Shown here: positions 4,537 to 62,047 of the stretch, piece after piece
Position numbering within the stretch: position 1 is the first letter of the stretch
Layout of the letters: the number at the start of each line of letters is the position of its first letter
Source: Alphaproteobacteria bacterium
Lineage (GTDB): Bacteria; Pseudomonadota; Alphaproteobacteria; UBA9655
Direction of reading: 5' to 3'
Length of the DNA stretch: 64,000 nt
NCBI GenBank assembly: GCA_013287205.1
Contig: JABDEE010000001.1
Coordinates: 4,882-68,881, forward strand
Program-made: the position numbers and the translations under genes
The notes under the pieces: generated by a model
What the model saw: the letters and a program-made list of their open reading frames with translations, nothing else
What the model was told of the DNA's origin: nothing
Databases searched by the model: none

Positions 4537-5310
4537 CTACACCCCCGACCCCCACCAGTAAATGCTGACAAAAAGAAAGAGCCACACGACGTCCACAAAA
4601 TGCCAATACCATGCGGCGGCCTCAAAGCCAATATGCCCTTCAGGGGTGAATTGCCCCAAACGCGCACGGACCCAACACAGGATGAGGAAAAGGGTGCCAA
4701 TGATCACATGAATCCCATGGAAGCCTGTGGCCATGTAAAAGGTCGAGGCATAGATGCCTTCCTTAAATCCAAATGACGCATGGGCGTATTCAAAAGCTTG
4801 AATGGCGGTAAACAGAAGCCCCAAGCAAATGGTGATGCCAATTCCCTTCGAAACGAGCTTTTGTTGGCCCTGCAACAAGGCATGGTGAGCCCAGGTTATC
4901 GTTGTTCCTGAAAGCAAGAGGAGGAGGGTGTTAAAGTAAGGGTAATCAAAAGGATCTATGGGATGAATCCCTTTGGGCGGCCACTGTCCTCCGGCAGGAA
5001 ACAAGCTCACATCAAAAAAGGCCGCAAAAAAAGCGACGAAAAACATGACTTCTGAGATGATGAAGCACACCATCCCTAAGCGAAGTCCTGTCTGTACAGG
5101 GGAGGTATAGGTTCCTTTGTGAGCTGCTTCCTTTAAGACATCATACCACCATCCCCCCATGGTAAAGAGGATTAACCCTAAGCCCATGAGAAGCACATAT
5201 GCACCGTGATTGTGCATCAAAAGAACGAGGCCGATCGCCGACACCAGCGCACCAATGGATCCCACAAAGGGCCACGGACTGGGAGAGACAAGGTGAAAGG
5301 GATGCTTCAT
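4537..5310 (-). CDS. ctaE: cytochrome c oxidase subunit III
   Basis: 257 aa. HPFHLVxPSPWP N-terminus and 7-TM layout with FYxATGFHGxHV and AAWYWHFVDVVW motifs. Confidence 0.93.
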   Translation of the reverse strand: MKHPFHLVSPSPWPFVGSIGALVSAIGLVLLMHNHGAYVLLMGLGLILFTMGGWWYDVLKEAAHKGTYTSPVQTGLRLGMVCFIISEVMFFVAFFAAFFDVSLFPAGGQWPPKGIHPIDPFDYPYFNTLLLLLSGTTITWAHHALLQGQQKLVSKGIGITICLGLLFTAIQAFEYAHASFGFKEGIYASTFYMATGFHGIHVIIGTLFLILCWVRARLGQFTPEGHIGFEAAAWYWHFVDVVWLFLFVSIYWWGSGV

Positions 5311-5315
5311 AGATC

Positions 5316-5346
5316 CAGTGTAGCAGTGTCGCAGACAACAGTGTAG
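5316..5346. repeat. degenerate octamer repeats (CAGTGTAG-like)
   Basis: CAGTGTAG CAGTGTCG CAGACAA CAGTGTAG lies immediately upstream of the ctaE start. Same unit family as the arrays at 47933 and 58851. Confidence 0.6.
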
Positions 5347-5831: not shown

Positions 5832-6237
5832 ATTTGTTGTTGATACAAATATCTTCATTAGCCAACTTCTCTTACCCTCTTCACTCCCAGGAAAAGCATT
5901 TCGGAAAGCCCTCTCTTGCGGAATCCTTTTATTTTCAGAAGACATCCTTCACGAACTCGCTGACGTTTTAGGAAGAAAGAAATTTGACCATTACCTTTCT
6001 CTTGAAGAACGGCAAGAATTTTTCCGTTACCTTTCTTTAATTGGCGAAGTTGTACACAATATCACGCCCTTAAAGGCGTGTCGGGATCCAAAAGATGATA
6101 AATTCCTAAGCCTCGCTGTTTGCGGTCAAGCAACCTTTCTTTTGACAGGGGACAATGATCTTCTTGTTCTTGATCCTTTTAGGGATGTACGTATCCTTTC
6201 TTGTGCGACATATTTGGGCGACCCCCCTTCCGAGTGA
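5815..6237 (+). CDS. PIN-domain toxin (type II TA)
   Basis: FVVDTNIFIS ... LTGDNDLLVL supply the acidic PIN residues. 17-nt overlap with the antitoxin gene. Confidence 0.85.
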   Translation: MARKSRFVVDTNIFISQLLLPSSLPGKAFRKALSCGILLFSEDILHELADVLGRKKFDHYLSLEERQEFFRYLSLIGEVVHNITPLKACRDPKDDKFLSLAVCGQATFLLTGDNDLLVLDPFRDVRILSCATYLGDPPSE

Positions 6238-33708: not shown

Positions 33709-33737
33709 CAGGAGTCAGGAGTCAGGAGTCAGGAAAC
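33709..33737. repeat. tandem heptamer (GGAGTCA)x3 cluster
   Basis: CAGGAGTCAGGAGTCAGGAGTCAGGAAACA lies directly after the yifB stop and contains the stop codon of the convergent SBP gene. Confidence 0.85.
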
Positions 33738-36465: not shown

Positions 36466-36693
36466 AAAAATACCTCAACTTTCAATCTATTCATACACAA
36501 TATATGTATCACTCAGATCATTACAGATATATATAATGAGAAAAATTTAAAAAGCAACAAAAAATTTGTTTATGTGCGAAATATGAGCGGCCTCGGAAAG
36601 GGAGGGCTCTCCATGGGCAAGAAAATGTTTCACCTGGCCCCTCTTTCCCTCTATGATGCCGGCATTGAGATTAACCGTTATGGAAATATATAT

Positions 36694-37554
36694 ATGAGCT
36701 GGCTTACCACTTTCGTCCGTCCGAAAATCAATGCGTTGATGCATAAGCGGGAGATCCCCGATAATCTTTGGGATCAATGTACCCACTGTGAGCAAATGAT
36801 TTTCCACAGGGATCTGGTGGCCCATCAGCATGTGTGCCACCATTGCGGCCATCATATGCGTATTCCTTTGACGCTTCGCTTTGAGACGCTTTTTGACGAC
36901 GGGCGCTTTCTCCGAGTTCCCGTACCGCCTGTTCCTGTTGATCCGCTTCATTTCAAAGATTCAAAAAAATATACGGACCGGCTCAAGGCTGCCCGTGCGG
37001 CGACAGGAGAAGATGACGCGCTTGTTGTTGTGGAGGGGCATATGGGAGGCCATCCCGTTGTCATTGCTGCTTTCGACTTTGCCTTTATTGGAGGATCCAT
37101 GGGGGCTGCGGTTGGGGAGGGTCTTGTGCGGGGTGCCCAGCGGGCGTGCGAATTGAAAGCTGCTTACATCGTTCTTCCTGCGTCAGGGGGGGCCCGCATG
37201 CAGGAAGGTATTTTTTCCCTCATGCAAATGCCCCGTTCTGTGATCGCGATTGAGCAAGTCAAAGAAGCAGGGCTTCCCTACATTACGCTTCTCACCAATC
37301 CCACCATGGGCGGGGTGGCTGCTTCTTTTGCCATGCTCGGGGATATTGCCATTGCGGAGCCTGGGGCACTCATTGGTTTTACGGGGGCTCGTGTTCTTCA
37401 AGAAACGATCCGCCAAGCGCTGCCTGCTGGGTTTCAAGAAGCGGAGTTTCAGTTCTCCCATGGGATGGTGGATATGGTCACACCCCGTTCAGAGCTTCGT
37501 CAAAAACTCATCGATATTTTGGGGATGCTGTTACCAGGAAACAGGGAACAGTAA
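36694..37554 (+). CDS. accD: acetyl-CoA carboxylase carboxyltransferase subunit beta
   Basis: Zinc ribbon CxxC...CxxC (CTHCEQ...CHHCGH) and GGSMG. Start at MSWLTTF. Confidence 0.93.
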   Translation: MSWLTTFVRPKINALMHKREIPDNLWDQCTHCEQMIFHRDLVAHQHVCHHCGHHMRIPLTLRFETLFDDGRFLRVPVPPVPVDPLHFKDSKKYTDRLKAARAATGEDDALVVVEGHMGGHPVVIAAFDFAFIGGSMGAAVGEGLVRGAQRACELKAAYIVLPASGGARMQEGIFSLMQMPRSVIAIEQVKEAGLPYITLLTNPTMGGVAASFAMLGDIAIAEPGALIGFTGARVLQETIRQALPAGFQEAEFQFSHGMVDMVTPRSELRQKLIDILGMLLPGNREQ

Positions 37555-37567
37555 TCAGGAAATAAAC

Positions 37568-47345: not shown

Positions 47346-47379
47346 ACCATCGTTTCTCTCTTTTTTGGATGTATCGCCC

Positions 47380-47949
47380 ATGTCAATTTTGTCAGATATT
47401 TGGATTCGTGAGCAGGCCCAGAAGGGCATGATTGAGCCCTTTGTGGAGCGTCAGCATAAGGAGGGGGTCATTTCCTATGGTCTATCTTCCTATGGGTATG
47501 ATGCGCGCGTCGCTGAGGATTTTAAGATTTTTACCAATGTGGATAACGCCTTGGTGGATCCAAAGGATTTCTCGCCCTCAAGTTTTGTCGATCGGACGGG
47601 GCCGATTTGCATCATTCCCCCCAATAGTTTCGTGCTCGGGCGGACGGTTGAATATTTTCGGATTCCCCGAGATGTGCTCGTGATTTGCCTCGGAAAATCT
47701 ACGTATGCCCGGTGTGGGATCATCGTCAATGTGACACCTCTCGAGCCCGAGTGGGAGGGGCATGTGACCTTGGAATTTTCGAATACAACGCCTTTGCCGG
47801 CAAAGCTCTATGCGAATGAAGGCGCTTGCCAGTTCCTGTTTCTCAAAGGGGACCAGGCGTGTGAGACGTCCTACAAAGATCGCGCGGGAAAATACATGGG
47901 GCAGCGAGGGGTGACGTTGCCGAAGATGGCCAGCAGTGTAGCAGTGTAG
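47380..47949 (+). CDS. dcd: dCTP deaminase
   Basis: SYGYDxR...EPxWxGxxTLEFSN...GKYxGQxGVT motifs. The last 6 codons and the TAG lie in the octamer array. Confidence 0.92.
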
Positions 47950-47976
47950 CAGTGTAGCAGTGTAGCAGTGTAGCAG
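47933..47976 (+). repeat. tandem octamer array (GCAGTGTA) x5.5
   Basis: Five perfect 8-bp units plus GCAG. Contains TAG in all three plus-strand frames. Confidence 0.95.
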
Positions 47977-48036
47977 GAGGGGGCCGCTTGTAAAAATGAG
48001 TGTCAATACAAAATATGTTAAAAAGATGAAAATGAA

Positions 48037-51000
48037 ATGATGAAAAAGAACAGTTCGACATCTGCTCCACCGCTCCACCGCTCCACCGCTCCACTGTCTT
48101 CTTTCATTCCCCTCCGCGTTCACACCGCCTACTCTCTCCTGGAAGGGGCGATTCCGGTTAAAAAGCTCATAGGGCTTGCCAAGAAGTTCAATATGCCGGC
48201 CGTTGCGATGACGGATACGAACAATCTGTTTGGGGCGTTTGAGTTTTCGAAGGAAGCCAAAAGTGCAGGGATTCAGCCTCTCTTAGGATGCCAAGTACAT
48301 GTTGGTCCTGAGAAAGATGTCCTTATTCTTCTGGTCCAAAATCAGCAGGGGTACGAAAATCTTCTTAAAATTGTGTCTTATCCTTACCTACAAGGAGAGC
48401 TGACTTTTGAGGTTCTGGCGCCGTTGACAAAAGGTCTCATTGCTCTGACAGGCGGATCTCAAGGGGCGCTTGCGCGTCAGCTTGCCAAGGGACTTGATGG
48501 GGAGGCCACGCTCAAAACCCTTCAGATGCTTTTTGAAGATCGTCTTTACATAGAGATCTCCCGTCAAGGGTCTCAGACGGCTCAGGAGCTGCGGGTAGAG
48601 GAAGGTCTCATCGATCTGGCCTACGCTCACAACGTTCCGCTTGTCGCGACCAATGAGGCCTTTTTCCCCGATCCCTCTTTTTATGAAGCCCACGATGCGC
48701 TGCTCTGTATTGCAGGGGGCACCTACGTTTCGACAGATGACAGGCGGCGGGTCACCCCCGACCACTGCTTTAAGTCGCCGGAGGAGATGGCCTCTCTCTT
48801 TGCAGATCTTCCTGAAGCGATCCTCAATACCCAGGTGATTGCTCAAAGGTGCAGCTTTTTGCTGGAGCCGATTGATCCCATCCTTCCTTCTTTTCCTTGT
48901 GAAGGGGGGGAGGATGAAGAGCTGCGCAAACAGGCTCACTTAGGTCTTGAAGACAGGCTCACACGCTATGTGTTCACGCCCTCTCTATCGGAGGAGGAAA
49001 AGCAAGAAACCCGTGAAAAATACACTGAAAAACTCGACTATGAGTTAGGCGTGATTCAGGGCATGAAGTTCTCAGGCTACTTCCTCATTGTGGCTGACTT
49101 CATCAAATGGGCAAAGGCCAACGGCATCCCTGTGGGGCCAGGGCGAGGATCTGGAGCGGGGTCCGTTGTGGCGTGGTCCCTTACCATTACTGATCTTGAT
49201 CCTATCAAGTTTGACCTGGTGTTTGAGCGCTTCTTGAACCCAGAGCGTGTCAGCATGCCGGACTTTGATATCGACTTTTGCCAGGAGCGTCGGGACGAGG
49301 TTATTCATTATGTGCAGCAAAAATATGGGGCTGATCGGGTGGCCCATATTATCACTTTTGGAAAGCTTCAGGCGCGTGCGGTACTGCGCGATGTAGGGCG
49401 TGTTCTTCAAATGCCTTACATGCAAGTGGATAAAATTTGCAAATTGATTCCGAACAATCCGGCACACCCTGTCACCCTCGAAGAAGCCCTCGAGATGGAA
49501 CCTCAGCTCAAGGAAATGGTGGAGAAAGAGGCGGAAGTGAAACATCTCATGGCCCTTGCCCAGCAGTTGGAGGGACTCTATCGTCATGCGTCAACCCATG
49601 CGGCGGGTGTTGTGATTGGGAATAAACCACTTGATGAAATGGTGCCTCTCTATCGTGATCCAGGATCCGCCCTTCCTGCTACCCAATACAATATGAAGTT
49701 TGTGGAAAGTGCGGGGTTGGTGAAATTTGACTTTCTGGGTCTGAACAACCTGACGGTCATCCAAACAGCGGTTGCCTACCTCAAAGACCAAGGGATTGAT
49801 TTGGATATCTCCAGTCTTCCTTTGGATGATGAGAAGACCTATGAGCTTCTTCGGCGGGCTGAAACCATTGGTATTTTCCAAATTGAAAGTGGGGGGATGA
49901 CCGACCTCACGCGCAAACTCAAGCCAAATCAGATTGAAGATCTTATTACCATCAGTGCGATCTATCGTCCGGGGCCGATGGATAATATTCCGCGCTTTTT
50001 GGCCTGCCGGAATGGGGAGGAAAAACCCCTCTACCTTTATCCCGAGCTCGAAGCGATTTTAGGGAACACCTATGGCATCATGGTGTATCAAGAGCAGGTT
50101 ATGCAGATTGCCCGAAGCCTGGCTGGCTACTCGATGGGAGGAGCGGATCTCCTTCGAAGAGCCATGGGAAAGAAGGTAAAATCCGAAATGGAGGCGCAGC
50201 GGAAGCAATTTATTGAGGGGCTCCTAACCCATACAGGGGGTACACCTGCCCTTGCAAAAGAGCTCTTCGCCCAAGCTGAAAAGTTTGCAAGTTACGCCTT
50301 CCCGCGGGCTCACGCGGCGGCCTATGCCCTCATTACCTATCAAACGGCCTACTTGAAGGCGCATCATCCCGTGGAGTACATGGCAGCCCTCATGACCCAT
50401 GCCCTTACCAATACGGATAAGTTGACGTTGTTTGCTCGGGAAACAACTCGGTTGGGTATTGAGCTTCTCCCGCCCGATGTGAATCAATCTGACGCCCTCT
50501 TTAAAGTAGAAGGGGGAAAGATTCGCTACGCCCTTGCGGCGTTGAAAAATGTGGGTGTTGCGGCGATGGAATCTCTTGTGAATGAGCGCACGCAAAAGGG
50601 TCCGTTTAAAGATATCTTTGACTTTGTGGAACGCTTGGATGGGCGAGTCATTAACAAGCGTCAAATGGAGCACATGATTATGGCGGGCGCTTTTGACAGC
50701 CTTTCCCCAAACCGCAGGCAGTTGATGGACAATCTGGAAATGTTGCTGCGATATGGGAATGAGGATAGGCGCGCCCCCGGCCTCTTTGGTGCTGAGGTTA
50801 TTCGTCCCAAACTTACATCTGTTGAGGATTGGGGGTCGCTTGAGAAGCTCCGTCATGAATTTTCAGCGGTGGGTTTTTACCTGACGGCTCATCCTCTGGA
50901 TGCCTATGCGGATAGCTTGTCTGGCCTTTATGTGCAACCATCTTCTGATCTTCATAAGGTGGAGGAGGGGGAGTCGCGCACATTCCGATTGGCGGGGATT

Positions 51001-51432
51001 GTCCTTGCTAAGCAGGAGAAAATTGCGAAAAGTGGCCAACGCTATGCCTTTATGACGCTCTCTGATTCTTCAGGAGTTTTTGAAGTGACCCTTTTTTCCG
51101 AAACCCTGAATCACCATCGGGACCTTCTCGAACCGGGCACTGCCCTTATTCTTACCCTCACGGCTCAGCTTTCTCATGAGAACTTGCGGCTGACATGCCA
51201 AAGCCTTGAAAGTCTGAATGCCCTCATCGAAGGAGAGCCCTTGACTGTTTCGATTCATACCCAGGCGCAAGCAGCGACTCTCATCCGCCTTCTTGAAAAA
51301 GCACCGCGGGGGACGGGGAGGGTGATGGTGCAAGTCGATACGAACGAAGGAAAAGGAACGGTGATTCTCCAGCCCACCTACGGGCTTACCCCTGAGGTTA
51401 GGGATCGGTTAAGCGCGCTTGCCGTTTGTTAG
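48037..51432 (+). CDS. dnaE: DNA polymerase III subunit alpha
   Basis: 1131 aa with PHP domain (LRVHTAYSLLEGA), polymerase core and OB-fold. The N-terminal tail contains the octamer array at 48064-48095. Confidence 0.96.
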   Translation: MMKKNSSTSAPPLHRSTAPLSSFIPLRVHTAYSLLEGAIPVKKLIGLAKKFNMPAVAMTDTNNLFGAFEFSKEAKSAGIQPLLGCQVHVGPEKDVLILLVQNQQGYENLLKIVSYPYLQGELTFEVLAPLTKGLIALTGGSQGALARQLAKGLDGEATLKTLQMLFEDRLYIEISRQGSQTAQELRVEEGLIDLAYAHNVPLVATNEAFFPDPSFYEAHDALLCIAGGTYVSTDDRRRVTPDHCFKSPEEMASLFADLPEAILNTQVIAQRCSFLLEPIDPILPSFPCEGGEDEELRKQAHLGLEDRLTRYVFTPSLSEEEKQETREKYTEKLDYELGVIQGMKFSGYFLIVADFIKWAKANGIPVGPGRGSGAGSVVAWSLTITDLDPIKFDLVFERFLNPERVSMPDFDIDFCQERRDEVIHYVQQKYGADRVAHIITFGKLQARAVLRDVGRVLQMPYMQVDKICKLIPNNPAHPVTLEEALEMEPQLKEMVEKEAEVKHLMALAQQLEGLYRHASTHAAGVVIGNKPLDEMVPLYRDPGSALPATQYNMKFVESAGLVKFDFLGLNNLTVIQTAVAYLKDQGIDLDISSLPLDDEKTYELLRRAETIGIFQIESGGMTDLTRKLKPNQIEDLITISAIYRPGPMDNIPRFLACRNGEEKPLYLYPELEAILGNTYGIMVYQEQVMQIARSLAGYSMGGADLLRRAMGKKVKSEMEAQRKQFIEGLLTHTGGTPALAKELFAQAEKFASYAFPRAHAAAYALITYQTAYLKAHHPVEYMAALMTHALTNTDKLTLFARETTRLGIELLPPDVNQSDALFKVEGGKIRYALAALKNVGVAAMESLVNERTQKGPFKDIFDFVERLDGRVINKRQMEHMIMAGAFDSLSPNRRQLMDNLEMLLRYGNEDRRAPGLFGAEVIRPKLTSVEDWGSLEKLRHEFSAVGFYLTAHPLDAYADSLSGLYVQPSSDLHKVEEGESRTFRLAGIVLAKQEKIAKSGQRYAFMTLSDSSGVFEVTLFSETLNHHRDLLEPGTALILTLTAQLSHENLRLTCQSLESLNALIEGEPLTVSIHTQAQAATLIRLLEKAPRGTGRVMVQVDTNEGKGTVILQPTYGLTPEVRDRLSALAVC
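48064..48095 (-). repeat. tandem octamer array (GCTCCACC x3 plus GCTCCACT), inverted relative to 47933-47976
   Basis: The reverse complement GGTGGAGC differs by one or two nucleotides from the other unit phases (AGTGTAGC, GGTGTAGC). Confidence 0.9.
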
Positions 51433-56642: not shown

Positions 56643-56708
56643 AGGGTCTCTCTTTCTATCTTTGTTTTGAGAAAGATAGCAGAGGGGTCTTAAGAAAAAG
56701 TAAATTAT

Positions 56709-56767
56709 CAGGAGTCAGAAACCAGGAATCAGGAGGACAGGAAAAATTTCCTGACCCCTGACTCCTG
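56709..56767 (-). terminator. groESL terminator hairpin built from GTCAGGA-type repeats
   Basis: CAGGAGTCAG (56709-18) pairs with CTGACTCCTG (56758-67), with an inner CAGGAAA/TTTCCTG stem. A T-rich tail follows on the minus strand. Confidence 0.6.
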
Positions 56768-56783
56768 TCTTCTGATTTCTGGC

Positions 56784-58430
<1,647 letters not shown>

Positions 58431-58829: not shown

Positions 58830-58850
58830 GAAAGGCGGATGGCCATTTCG

Positions 58851-58930
58851 GTGTAGCGGTGTAGCGGTGTAGCGGTGTAGCGGTGTAGCGGTGTAGCGGT
58901 GTAGCGGTGTAGCGGTGTAGCGGTGTAGCG
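58851..58930 (+). repeat. tandem octamer array (GTGTAGCG) x10, perfect
   Basis: 80 bp with no mismatches. Starts 21 bp upstream of the groESL -35 hexamer. Confidence 0.97.
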
Positions 58931-58999
58931 GAAGGAAAAAGAATACGAAAAAACATGTCAATTCTTTTCTCCTCTTATTTCTTACTTTTCTGACTAACT

Positions 59000-59023
59000 G
59001 CTCCACCGCTAAACTGCTATACC
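59000..59023 (-). repeat. three degenerate octamers (GCTCCACC GCTAAACT GCTATACC), inverted relative to 58851-58930
   Basis: Same unit as 48064-48095. Separated from the 10x array by a 69-bp A+T-rich spacer. Confidence 0.6.
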
Positions 59024-59119
59024 GTGTTGTAATAAATCGTCATGATCAGTGAGAGGGAGATACACGGAATTTGTAGTATGCTGTGCTTCATAAAAGAACC
59101 TTTAAAGGCAAATGTATCC

Positions 59120-61875: not shown

Positions 61876-62047
61876 AGTGGGGGTGCGGAGATGACAATTT
61901 ACGTATGGCCTGCACTCCACGAGATAGTTTGAGATGCTGCCTCCCGACCCCTGATCCTTGACTCCTGACTCCTGACAGACTTGACATCTTCCCCCCTTCC
62001 CTCCATGGTTCCTCGATAAAATCAGTATAGGGGATAAGGGTGAATTC

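Follow-up and report, generated by a model that had tools for sequence, protein, structure and literature searches.

Probable insertion of a gene-less dispersed element with inverted octamer arms between dcd and dnaE in an alphaproteobacterium

Paired, inverted arrays of 7-8-nt units between genes are an already described class, known from Xanthomonas, Geobacter and cyanobacteria. In Xanthomonas campestris pv. campestris, Rehm et al. (2015) reported 186 arrays of the heptamer GGGAATC and 70 nearby pairs on opposite strands (convergent); arrays had 2 to 26 copies, and GGGGAYT arrays were found in Nostoc (PMC4692102). The Xanthomonas arrays lie by preference in the gaps separating aligned open reading frames (ORFs), are not associated with insertion sequence elements and have no explained function. 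Their purine-rich strand is the sense strand when the array overlaps a stop codon or is at most 50 bp from it, and the antisense strand when the array lies just upstream of the next ORF (PMC4692102). In Geobacter metallireducens, Aklujkar et al. (2009) defined a 'class 1' of four tandem octamers GTTGCTYN, arranged in opposite-strand pairs and predicted to be regulator sites, and a heptamer 'class 3' with the consensus MTYCTGA (PMC2700814). Here, we analyse one such pair at the junction of dcd and dnaE, in a stretch of 64,000 nt from an Alphaproteobacteria bacterium (GCA_013287205.1, contig JABDEE010000001.1) that we call the window. We propose, with a probability of about 0.68, that positions 47932-48094 are an inserted copy of a lineage-specific, gene-less, octamer-armed dispersed element, whose anatomy makes the insertion non-polar.

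The octamers of the window resemble these systems in several respects. As in Xanthomonas, they form a multi-copy family of one short unit and follow the same orientation rule. Counting the loci from other contigs described below, this is the case on the stop side at dcd, a hisS-like gene and coxB, and on the start side at dnaE, ctaD, ctaB, ctaE, the region upstream of groES and the gene of a substrate-binding protein. Opposite-strand pairing is found twice in the window (gaps of 87 and 68 nt) and once in contig Ga0207078_1009 (loci L105 and L207), a contig of a related species (76% identical in nucleotides to window positions 36693-37487; LpxC 77% identical). The arrays of Geobacter are likewise tandem octamers, mostly in opposite-strand pairs at variable distance and with dozens of copies per genome, and the CTCCTGA heptamers that make up a second family in the window fit its class 3 consensus. 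In contrast to the units of Xanthomonas and Nostoc, those of the window have 8 nt, and GTGTAGCA and GGTGGAGC carry no GGG runs; since they lack G-tracts, a G-quadruplex reading does not apply. Class 1 of Geobacter differs in the sequence of its octamer, and neither a link to stop or start codons nor an insertion was described there.

Two other families deserve comparison. The short tandemly repeated repetitive sequences (STRR) of heterocystous cyanobacteria, reportedly described by Mazel and colleagues in 1990, are said to be lineage-specific perfect 7-nt tandem arrays dispersed through non-coding DNA; their unit is a heptamer, and neither inverted pairs nor codons supplied by the element are defining features. 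The mycobacterial interspersed repetitive units (MIRUs), which Supply and colleagues reportedly presented in 1997 as intercistronic operon repeats whose small frames overlap the upstream stop and the downstream start, are the nearest functional analogue of the window element in being non-polar intercistronic insertions. They differ from it in having direct-tandem units of 40-100 bp and no octamer arms around a core, and there is no sequence relationship. What is new here is the conserved core, the evidence for insertion from an empty site, a homologous copy that another species carries at a different junction, and essential genes whose start apparently lies within the element and which carry one of its arms as translated protein; in Xanthomonas and Nostoc, no conserved core, empty-site comparison or arm translated into an essential protein was reported. 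The empty-site comparison, the spread copy and the dependent start codons were not found in PMC4692102, in PMC2700814 or in full-text literature searches, and a search for the literal repeat strings returned no papers. A first-pass annotation of this DNA had missed that the block is probably an inserted dispersed element whose core is conserved, as well as the second pair of arrays in the window and the membership in a described class (PMC4692102, PMC2700814).

The 5' arm of the pair at dcd and dnaE (pair 1; 47932-47976, plus strand) is a perfect (AGCAGTGT)x5.6 in the GTGTAGC orientation, and the 3' arm (48064-48094, plus strand) is a perfect (GCTCCACC)x3.9 in the GCTCCAC orientation, the inverted form of the octamer family. 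Between them lies a core, or spacer, of 87 nt (47977-48063, plus strand) that is A+T-rich, with 33% G+C against 49% in the window. The reverse complement of GCTCCACC is GGTGGAGC, and both units thus fit RGTGKAGC. On the plus strand, every frame of the 5' arm contains TAG, while its other strand has none, and the 3' arm is free of stops in all six frames; these properties, like the anatomy itself, are direct observations. The ORF of dcd (dCTP deaminase; 47365-47949, plus strand) runs into the 5' arm, which supplies its last five codons, SSVAV, and its TAG (47947-47949); the PDB homologues of Dcd, 4dhk and 3km3, terminate 1-2 residues past ...GVTLPK. On the other side, the ORF of dnaE (DNA polymerase III alpha, 1131 aa; 48037-51432, plus strand) takes its first 22 residues from the element. 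The 3' arm is read as APPLHRSTAP in this leader, ahead of the conserved FIPLRVHTAYSLLEGA, and the conserved part of the protein begins at FIPLRVH (48103). The first-pass annotation had described facing arrays around an 87-nt A+T-rich spacer, with units that are variants of RGTGKAGC, the first ending dcd with TAG in three frames and the second lying in the 5' coding region of dnaE; our analysis bears out this description.

Comparison with relatives reveals the junction without the element. The closest DnaE of the protein collection searched (P0002, 78% identical across the 160 N-terminal residues) is found at loci L202-L205, from four Logan contigs or assemblies, and no octamer arrays occur in the 20 kb of these loci. 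The L202 junction reads ...CCC AAA ATG GCT ATA TAG AAG GTG TCC ACT TCC CTG CCT TTC ATT CCT: Dcd ends as ...LPKMAI*, and 3 nt further on DnaE begins at GTG as MSTSLPFIPLRVH. Because the gap between dcd and dnaE is only 3 nt in this array-free relative, the window bears an insert of ~165 nt precisely at that junction. The 87-nt core is missing from L202, and, conversely, the window has lost the ancestral stop together with the 3-nt gap and the GTG start; both the filled and the empty site are directly seen. In 13 relatives, DnaE starts with M-FI[HP]LRVH or has a short leader, and the alignments begin at residue 23 of the window protein. Among the relatives compared, the predicted element-made N-terminal leader of DnaE is unique to the window.

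A homologous element is present at a non-orthologous junction in the related species, where it lies between the hisS-like gene and ctaD (L207). Its 5' arm is (AGCAGTGT)x12.6, and the upstream gene ends in ...EDALSSVAV*, with the same SSVAV* tail as the Dcd of the window. This arm is followed by GGAGGGGGCACCTTGTAAAAAAAAGTGTCAAGAGGAAACTGAAAAA and then by ATG ACA GAA AAA AAT ACT. The opposite arm is degenerate (GCTAAACC ACTAAACT GCTACACT ... GCTCCACT GCTCCACT GCTACACC), in frame with the conserved part of CtaD and read as MTEKNTAKPLNCYTAKPAAKPLHCSTATPSGWRRWILSTNHKDIG. In the first 38 nt past the 5' arm, 34 bases are identical between the window and L207, and the core and arm of L207 are matched at 100% by an independent Logan assembly (L208). 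That the related species has a homologous copy between other genes implies that the unit spreads. The part held in common is a conserved core box, GGAGGGGGCCGCTTGTAAAAATGAGTGTCAATA (47976-48008, plus strand), with the consensus GGAGGGGGC-N3-TTGTAAAAA-N3-GTGTCAA. We retrieved at least three more copies, as ..CTTGTAAAAA-N4-TGTCAATA adjoining the arms, at loose contig ends in the Logan assemblies (k=31) of two public soil runs, SRR8433316 (X1) and SRR8435197 (X2). The box is common to at least six copies, and the second pair of the window has a weak version.

The two consecutive ATG codons of the core (48037-48042, plus strand) are the sole canonical starts in the dnaE frame: ATG 48037 and ATG 48040 are the only ATG, GTG or TTG upstream of FIPLRVH, and the L207 element has its ATG at the aligned position. 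In the two remaining frames, starts that lie upstream of the 3' arm lead to TGA 48027 and TGA 48038. Between the 3' arm and FIPLRVH there is no ATG, GTG or TTG; only CTG 48094 and ATT 48106 are present, without a ribosome-binding site and without alignment with the GTG start of the relative. We infer that DnaE translation starts at ATG 48037, with a 22-residue leader made by the element. The peptide MMKKNSSTSAPPLHR, if found in DnaE, would be incompatible with a start downstream of the array. As the first-pass annotation had anticipated, slippage by one unit shifts the frame of dnaE: when the 3' arm was rebuilt with 1-7 units, 1, 4 and 7 led into DnaE, whereas 2, 3, 5 and 6 led to a stop within ~40 codons. 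The same annotation had proposed either a constrained copy number or a non-canonical start further downstream. The absence of a canonical downstream start, the loss of the ancestral GTG and the parallel of ctaD in the related species favour the former, with a translated array, and make the latter unlikely.

The insertion would work as follows. The ends of the element are inverted tandem arrays of the octamer GTGKAGCN, and it would have landed in the 3-nt gap that formerly separated dcd from dnaE. With TAG in three frames, the 5' arm, (GTGTAGCN)n, would terminate any gene that enters it, and Dcd would thereby gain five residues and stop. The A+T-rich core supplies the conserved box and an ATG with A-rich codons, and the stop-free 3' arm, (GCTMCACN)m, would let translation from this ATG pass through into the downstream gene. 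In DnaE, the 22-residue leader of the element would replace an ancestral leader of 6 residues begun by GTG. Since each octamer shifts the frame by 2, only unit numbers equal to 1 mod 3 give DnaE, and we infer that purifying selection on this essential gene keeps the 3' arm at four units. Untranslated 5' arms would be free to expand by replication slippage; in the three elements seen, they number 5.6, 10.4 and 12.6 units, all perfect. Most likely, the element has no host function beyond being tolerated.

The arrays of the window are far beyond chance. Three perfect period-8 arrays of at least 20 nt were counted in its 64 kb, against none in a control set of 845 kb, which consisted of the dnaE loci of 80 other bacteria, and the pattern GTGKAGCNGTGKAGC has 18 matches in the window for 0.03 expected. 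Altogether, the window holds three perfect and two degenerate octamer arrays. The inverted-pair architecture recurs in a second full pair (58849-59023), between groES and lpxC. Its 5' arm (58849-58931, plus strand) is a perfect (CGGTGTAG)x10.4 that faces the groES promoter and its CIRCE (controlling inverted repeat of chaperone expression). The spacer of 68 nt (58932-58999, plus strand) is A+T-rich (28% G+C), with a weak core box (..GAAAAAACATGTCAAT), and the 3' arm (59000-59023, plus strand) is degenerate (GCTCCACC GCTAAACT GCTATACC). The homology found upstream of lpxC (TGTTGTAAYAAT.CGTCAT.ATCAGTGA; window 59024-59060, L209 575-610 and L207 ~5915-5950) begins exactly past this arm. As array-free relatives have ctaB, not groES, upstream of lpxC, the synteny breakpoint coincides with the pair-2 element. 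The degenerate copy of the motif that had been noticed beside the start of ctaE is real. It is a solo arm (5316-5346, plus strand; CAGTGTAG CAGTGTCG CAGACAA CAGTGTAG) located 5 nt from the ctaE start and followed by a box-like stretch, GAGGCGGGGC.

Arms adjoining or entering genes were observed at other loci of this lineage as well. At L105, a solo arm directly follows the stop codon of coxB. At L124, an arm is translated in the signal peptide of the substrate-binding protein, and the flanks of the array match two loose ends of the X2 run. At L207 4560-4625, the ATG of ctaB lies within the terminus, GGGGATGACA, of a palindromic repeat and is followed by an octamer arm (MSSSGMTKKRRTTLLNCYTATL...) translated at the N-terminus of CtaB. 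On the minus strand of window 5308-5330, which is the sense strand of ctaE, the solo arm reads ..TGCTACACTGGATCTATG, with TGnTACACT, similar to an extended -10 box, 6 nt before the ATG and no Shine-Dalgarno sequence; the ctaE transcript could be leaderless.

The core of pair 1 has further features of its own. In the core box (window 47976-47993; L207 2689-2706), a strong Shine-Dalgarno-like GGAGG is followed after 7 nt by a TTG directly joined to TAA, a minimal start-stop. A speculative mini-ORF of 14 codons, MSVNTKYVKKMKMK* (47996-48040, plus strand), has a TGA that overlaps the dnaE ATG (ATGA), and its reading frame is not kept in other copies. Since the copies of the core box differ in frame, we rejected the possibility that it codes for a small ORF. 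A 15-nt inverted repeat, ATGAAAAAGAACAGT (48040-48054) and ACTGTCTTCTTTCAT (48093-48107), is 80% complementary and brackets the dnaE arm; RNA made from it would pair the region of the dnaE start codon with the first conserved dnaE codons.

Several observations weigh against an inserted element. No Shine-Dalgarno sequence precedes ATG 48037. The two spacers of the window are not significantly alike overall, and as RNA the two arms of pair 1 show poor pairing (z -0.9 to -1.25). The alignment of the filled and empty sites shows no target-site duplication, which is weak evidence given that the species are diverged, and no transposase or other mobility gene was seen, although the genome itself was not searched for one. 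The junction of the array-free relative (..TATAG AAG GTGTCCACT..) is faintly like one unit of each arm, and the arms could partly have grown in place. Finally, neither X1 nor X2 has a match of at least 85% to the pair-1 spacer, although both flanks are present at a depth of 73-118, and the run index lacks the spacer as well.

A more ambitious form of the insertion hypothesis, possible but doubtful in our opinion, is that the element is a self-fitting intercistronic cassette, i.e. a mobile insert able to land between essential genes, or in their first codons, without polar damage. The 5' arm would be its stop, the core would restart translation through GGAGG, TTG-TAA and an ATG with an A-rich leader, and the open 3' arm would be an adaptor, in which slippage of 8-nt units (2 mod 3) searches for the frame. 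A gene-bearing counterpart may be seen in a contig of another organism with 68% G+C, where a gene of the PF05635 family (23S rRNA intervening-sequence protein; E 4.8e-23) lies inside composite inverted repeats containing GGTGGAGC arrays (L129 380-1020). This gene is bracketed by the same octamer as the dnaE arm, whereas the spacers of the window are gene-less. We rejected an assignment of the window copies to cassettes of this intervening-sequence type, as neither the 87-nt nor the 68-nt spacer has such an ORF and 10 ORFs of the window tested negative.

The arrays could instead have grown in place, without any insertion, by replication slippage of short local seeds under a lineage-specific mutational bias. 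Consistent with this, they are uniform within a locus and differ between loci (AGCAGTGT, CGGTGTAG, GCTCCACC), which is a hallmark of slippage; in the relative, the empty site offers loosely similar seeds for both arms, and solo arms occur, after coxB in L105 and at ctaE. We nevertheless regard this explanation as unlikely. A 3-nt junction cannot yield an 87-nt core, the core box is ~90% identical to a non-orthologous copy in another species and is present in several more copies, and one octamer family is found at all loci.

Slightly less probable still is that the arrays are tandem binding sites of a global regulator or nucleoid protein, with pairs organising promoter regions such as those of groES/lpxC and dnaE. 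The ten-unit arm ends ~21 bp upstream of the groES -35 region, the paired opposite-strand layout is that of the predicted global-regulator sites of Geobacter metallireducens (PMC2700814), and the GTGTAGCA unit reads TGCTACACT on the reverse strand, like an extended -10 box. A promoter and terminator scan of pair 1 gave a weak reverse-strand match to TTTACA-16-TACACT and one weak terminator-like hairpin; the same scan gave nothing in pair 2. Regulator sites would hardly be expected inside coding regions and over stop codons, in 3 to 12.6 units, beside unrelated housekeeping genes (dcd, dnaE, hisS-like, ctaD, ctaB, coxB and the substrate-binding protein gene), and no candidate binding protein was identified. 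Such binding would, in any case, be compatible with the insertion of an element.

An assembly error, in which the spacer of another copy was threaded between the dcd and dnaE contigs through shared arms, would account for the absence of the pair-1 spacer from the read-derived assemblies. In X1 and X2, both pair-1 flanks are found at 100% identity and run into the arrays, and many other contigs enter the same arrays with different flanks, which makes the octamer family multi-copy. With k=31, Logan contigs break within every array, and the unit number cannot be read from them. The pair-1 spacer may be missing from these assemblies because parallel spacers between shared arms were popped as assembler bubbles. 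In X2, one contig with a depth of 2.2 links the first array straight to the second (47966/48061), skipping the spacer; it could represent a spacer-less copy elsewhere or a deletion variant. We consider such an error improbable: dcd also neighbours dnaE in the relative, the contigs of the two flanks break off in the right arms, and the ATG of the spacer is exactly in the dnaE frame through a 31-nt arm with no alternative start. Furthermore, an L207 element of the same layout was recovered by two assemblers, and the pair-2 spacer is present in a 94-nt Logan contig (depth 113) that matches 58906-58999 at 100%; the flanks of pair 2 were likewise recovered from Logan data. Look-ups of Dcd and GroES gave Logan contigs only, and the exact DnaE of the window and the L124 substrate-binding protein had no database record. 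The least probable explanation is that the dnaE arm is an ON/OFF contingency locus driven by slippage or that DnaE starts at CTG 48094 or ATT 48106: the perfect array of 8-nt units, 8 not being a multiple of 3, and the missing Shine-Dalgarno sequence would suit it, but a switch is implausible for an essential gene whose slipped variants could not be rescued by an open start in either of the other frames, the two downstream codons have the defects given above, and ctaD in L207 likewise depends on the ATG of the element.

We also compared the element with other known kinds of sequence. Miniature inverted-repeat transposable elements have terminal inverted repeats and an internal sequence conserved over many copies; in the element, the arms are inverted and the core box is present in at least six copies, but the remaining core is not conserved between the two copies of the window. 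Repetitive extragenic palindromes and bacterial interspersed mosaic elements, which go with a RAYT transposase, were rejected, as the octamers are non-palindromic and in direct tandem, whereas those repeats are imperfect palindromes of 20-40 nt with a GTAG-type head. A phase-variable contingency locus, where changes in repeat number switch a dispensable gene (as a rule one for a surface or restriction function) between two viable states, was discarded because dnaE is not dispensable, slipped variants stop within ~40 codons and there is no start in another frame. RNA folding is good for pair 2 (z -3.6 to -4.1) and for L207 (z -8.8), and in some copies the arms could form a hairpin in RNA; since pair 1 folds poorly, we rejected a hairpin as the general role. 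Rfam 15 gave no family match, only weak look-alikes of miRNA hairpins far under the thresholds. Readings of the octamer or core box as a Chi site, DnaA box, integration host factor site or Rho-utilisation site were dropped for want of a good match.

When metagenome contigs were scanned for GTGKAGCN in three units, at least 119 loci were obtained, with G+C from 0.34 to 0.73. Among the matches listed, 14 of the 119 have an inverted partner within 300 nt, and a PF05635 motif was found in a single one (L129). Most of these loci come from unrelated organisms with nothing but the octamer of the search in common, and none of the 119 listed carries a homologue of the window spacers. Where codon-position G+C marks the genes, pairs tightly fill the intergenic gap, and the neighbouring genes are mostly co-oriented or convergent. 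In a low-G+C group (L088, L163, L185, L191, L199, L097, L102 and L165; G+C 0.34-0.40), (GTGTAGCG)x3 is followed by an A+T-rich stretch, inverted CCGCTAC copies and a gene whose product has an N-terminus like that of the phage terminase small subunit. Possibly a packaging or origin region of a phage, this group probably has no relation to the element of the window.

The window has a second repeat family, made of the heptamers CAGGAGT and CAGGAAA. Right after the groEL stop (56707-56790), an inverted degenerate pair of these (CAGGAGT CAGAAAC CAGGAAT CAGGAGG ... / ... CCTGAC CCCTGAC TCCTGTC TTCTGAT) folds into a long hairpin with a run rich in T behind it on the groEL strand, and looks like a groESL terminator built from this family. 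Other heptamer arrays lie at gene ends (33709-33736, 37535-37562 and 61937-61976), and in the ACTCCTG orientation they have TGA in all three frames.

For more than fifteen years, paired inverted arrays of heptamers and octamers have been listed from Xanthomonas, Nostoc and Geobacter with no account of why they exist, and the insertion of an element such as this one offers a testable idea for why they hug stop and start codons. Two essential genes, dnaE and ctaD, have lost their own start and now apparently rely on an ATG of the element through its arm, the unit number of which must stay 1 mod 3. There is a practical consequence for annotation, since N-terminal leaders such as APPLHRST and ATLLHCYT are repeat-derived. 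If the more ambitious hypothesis of a self-fitting cassette were true, arrays of this widespread class would be neither regulator sites nor quadruplexes; they would serve selfish cassettes as adaptors for frame and stop, and these cassettes might descend from PF05635 cassettes that lost their gene.

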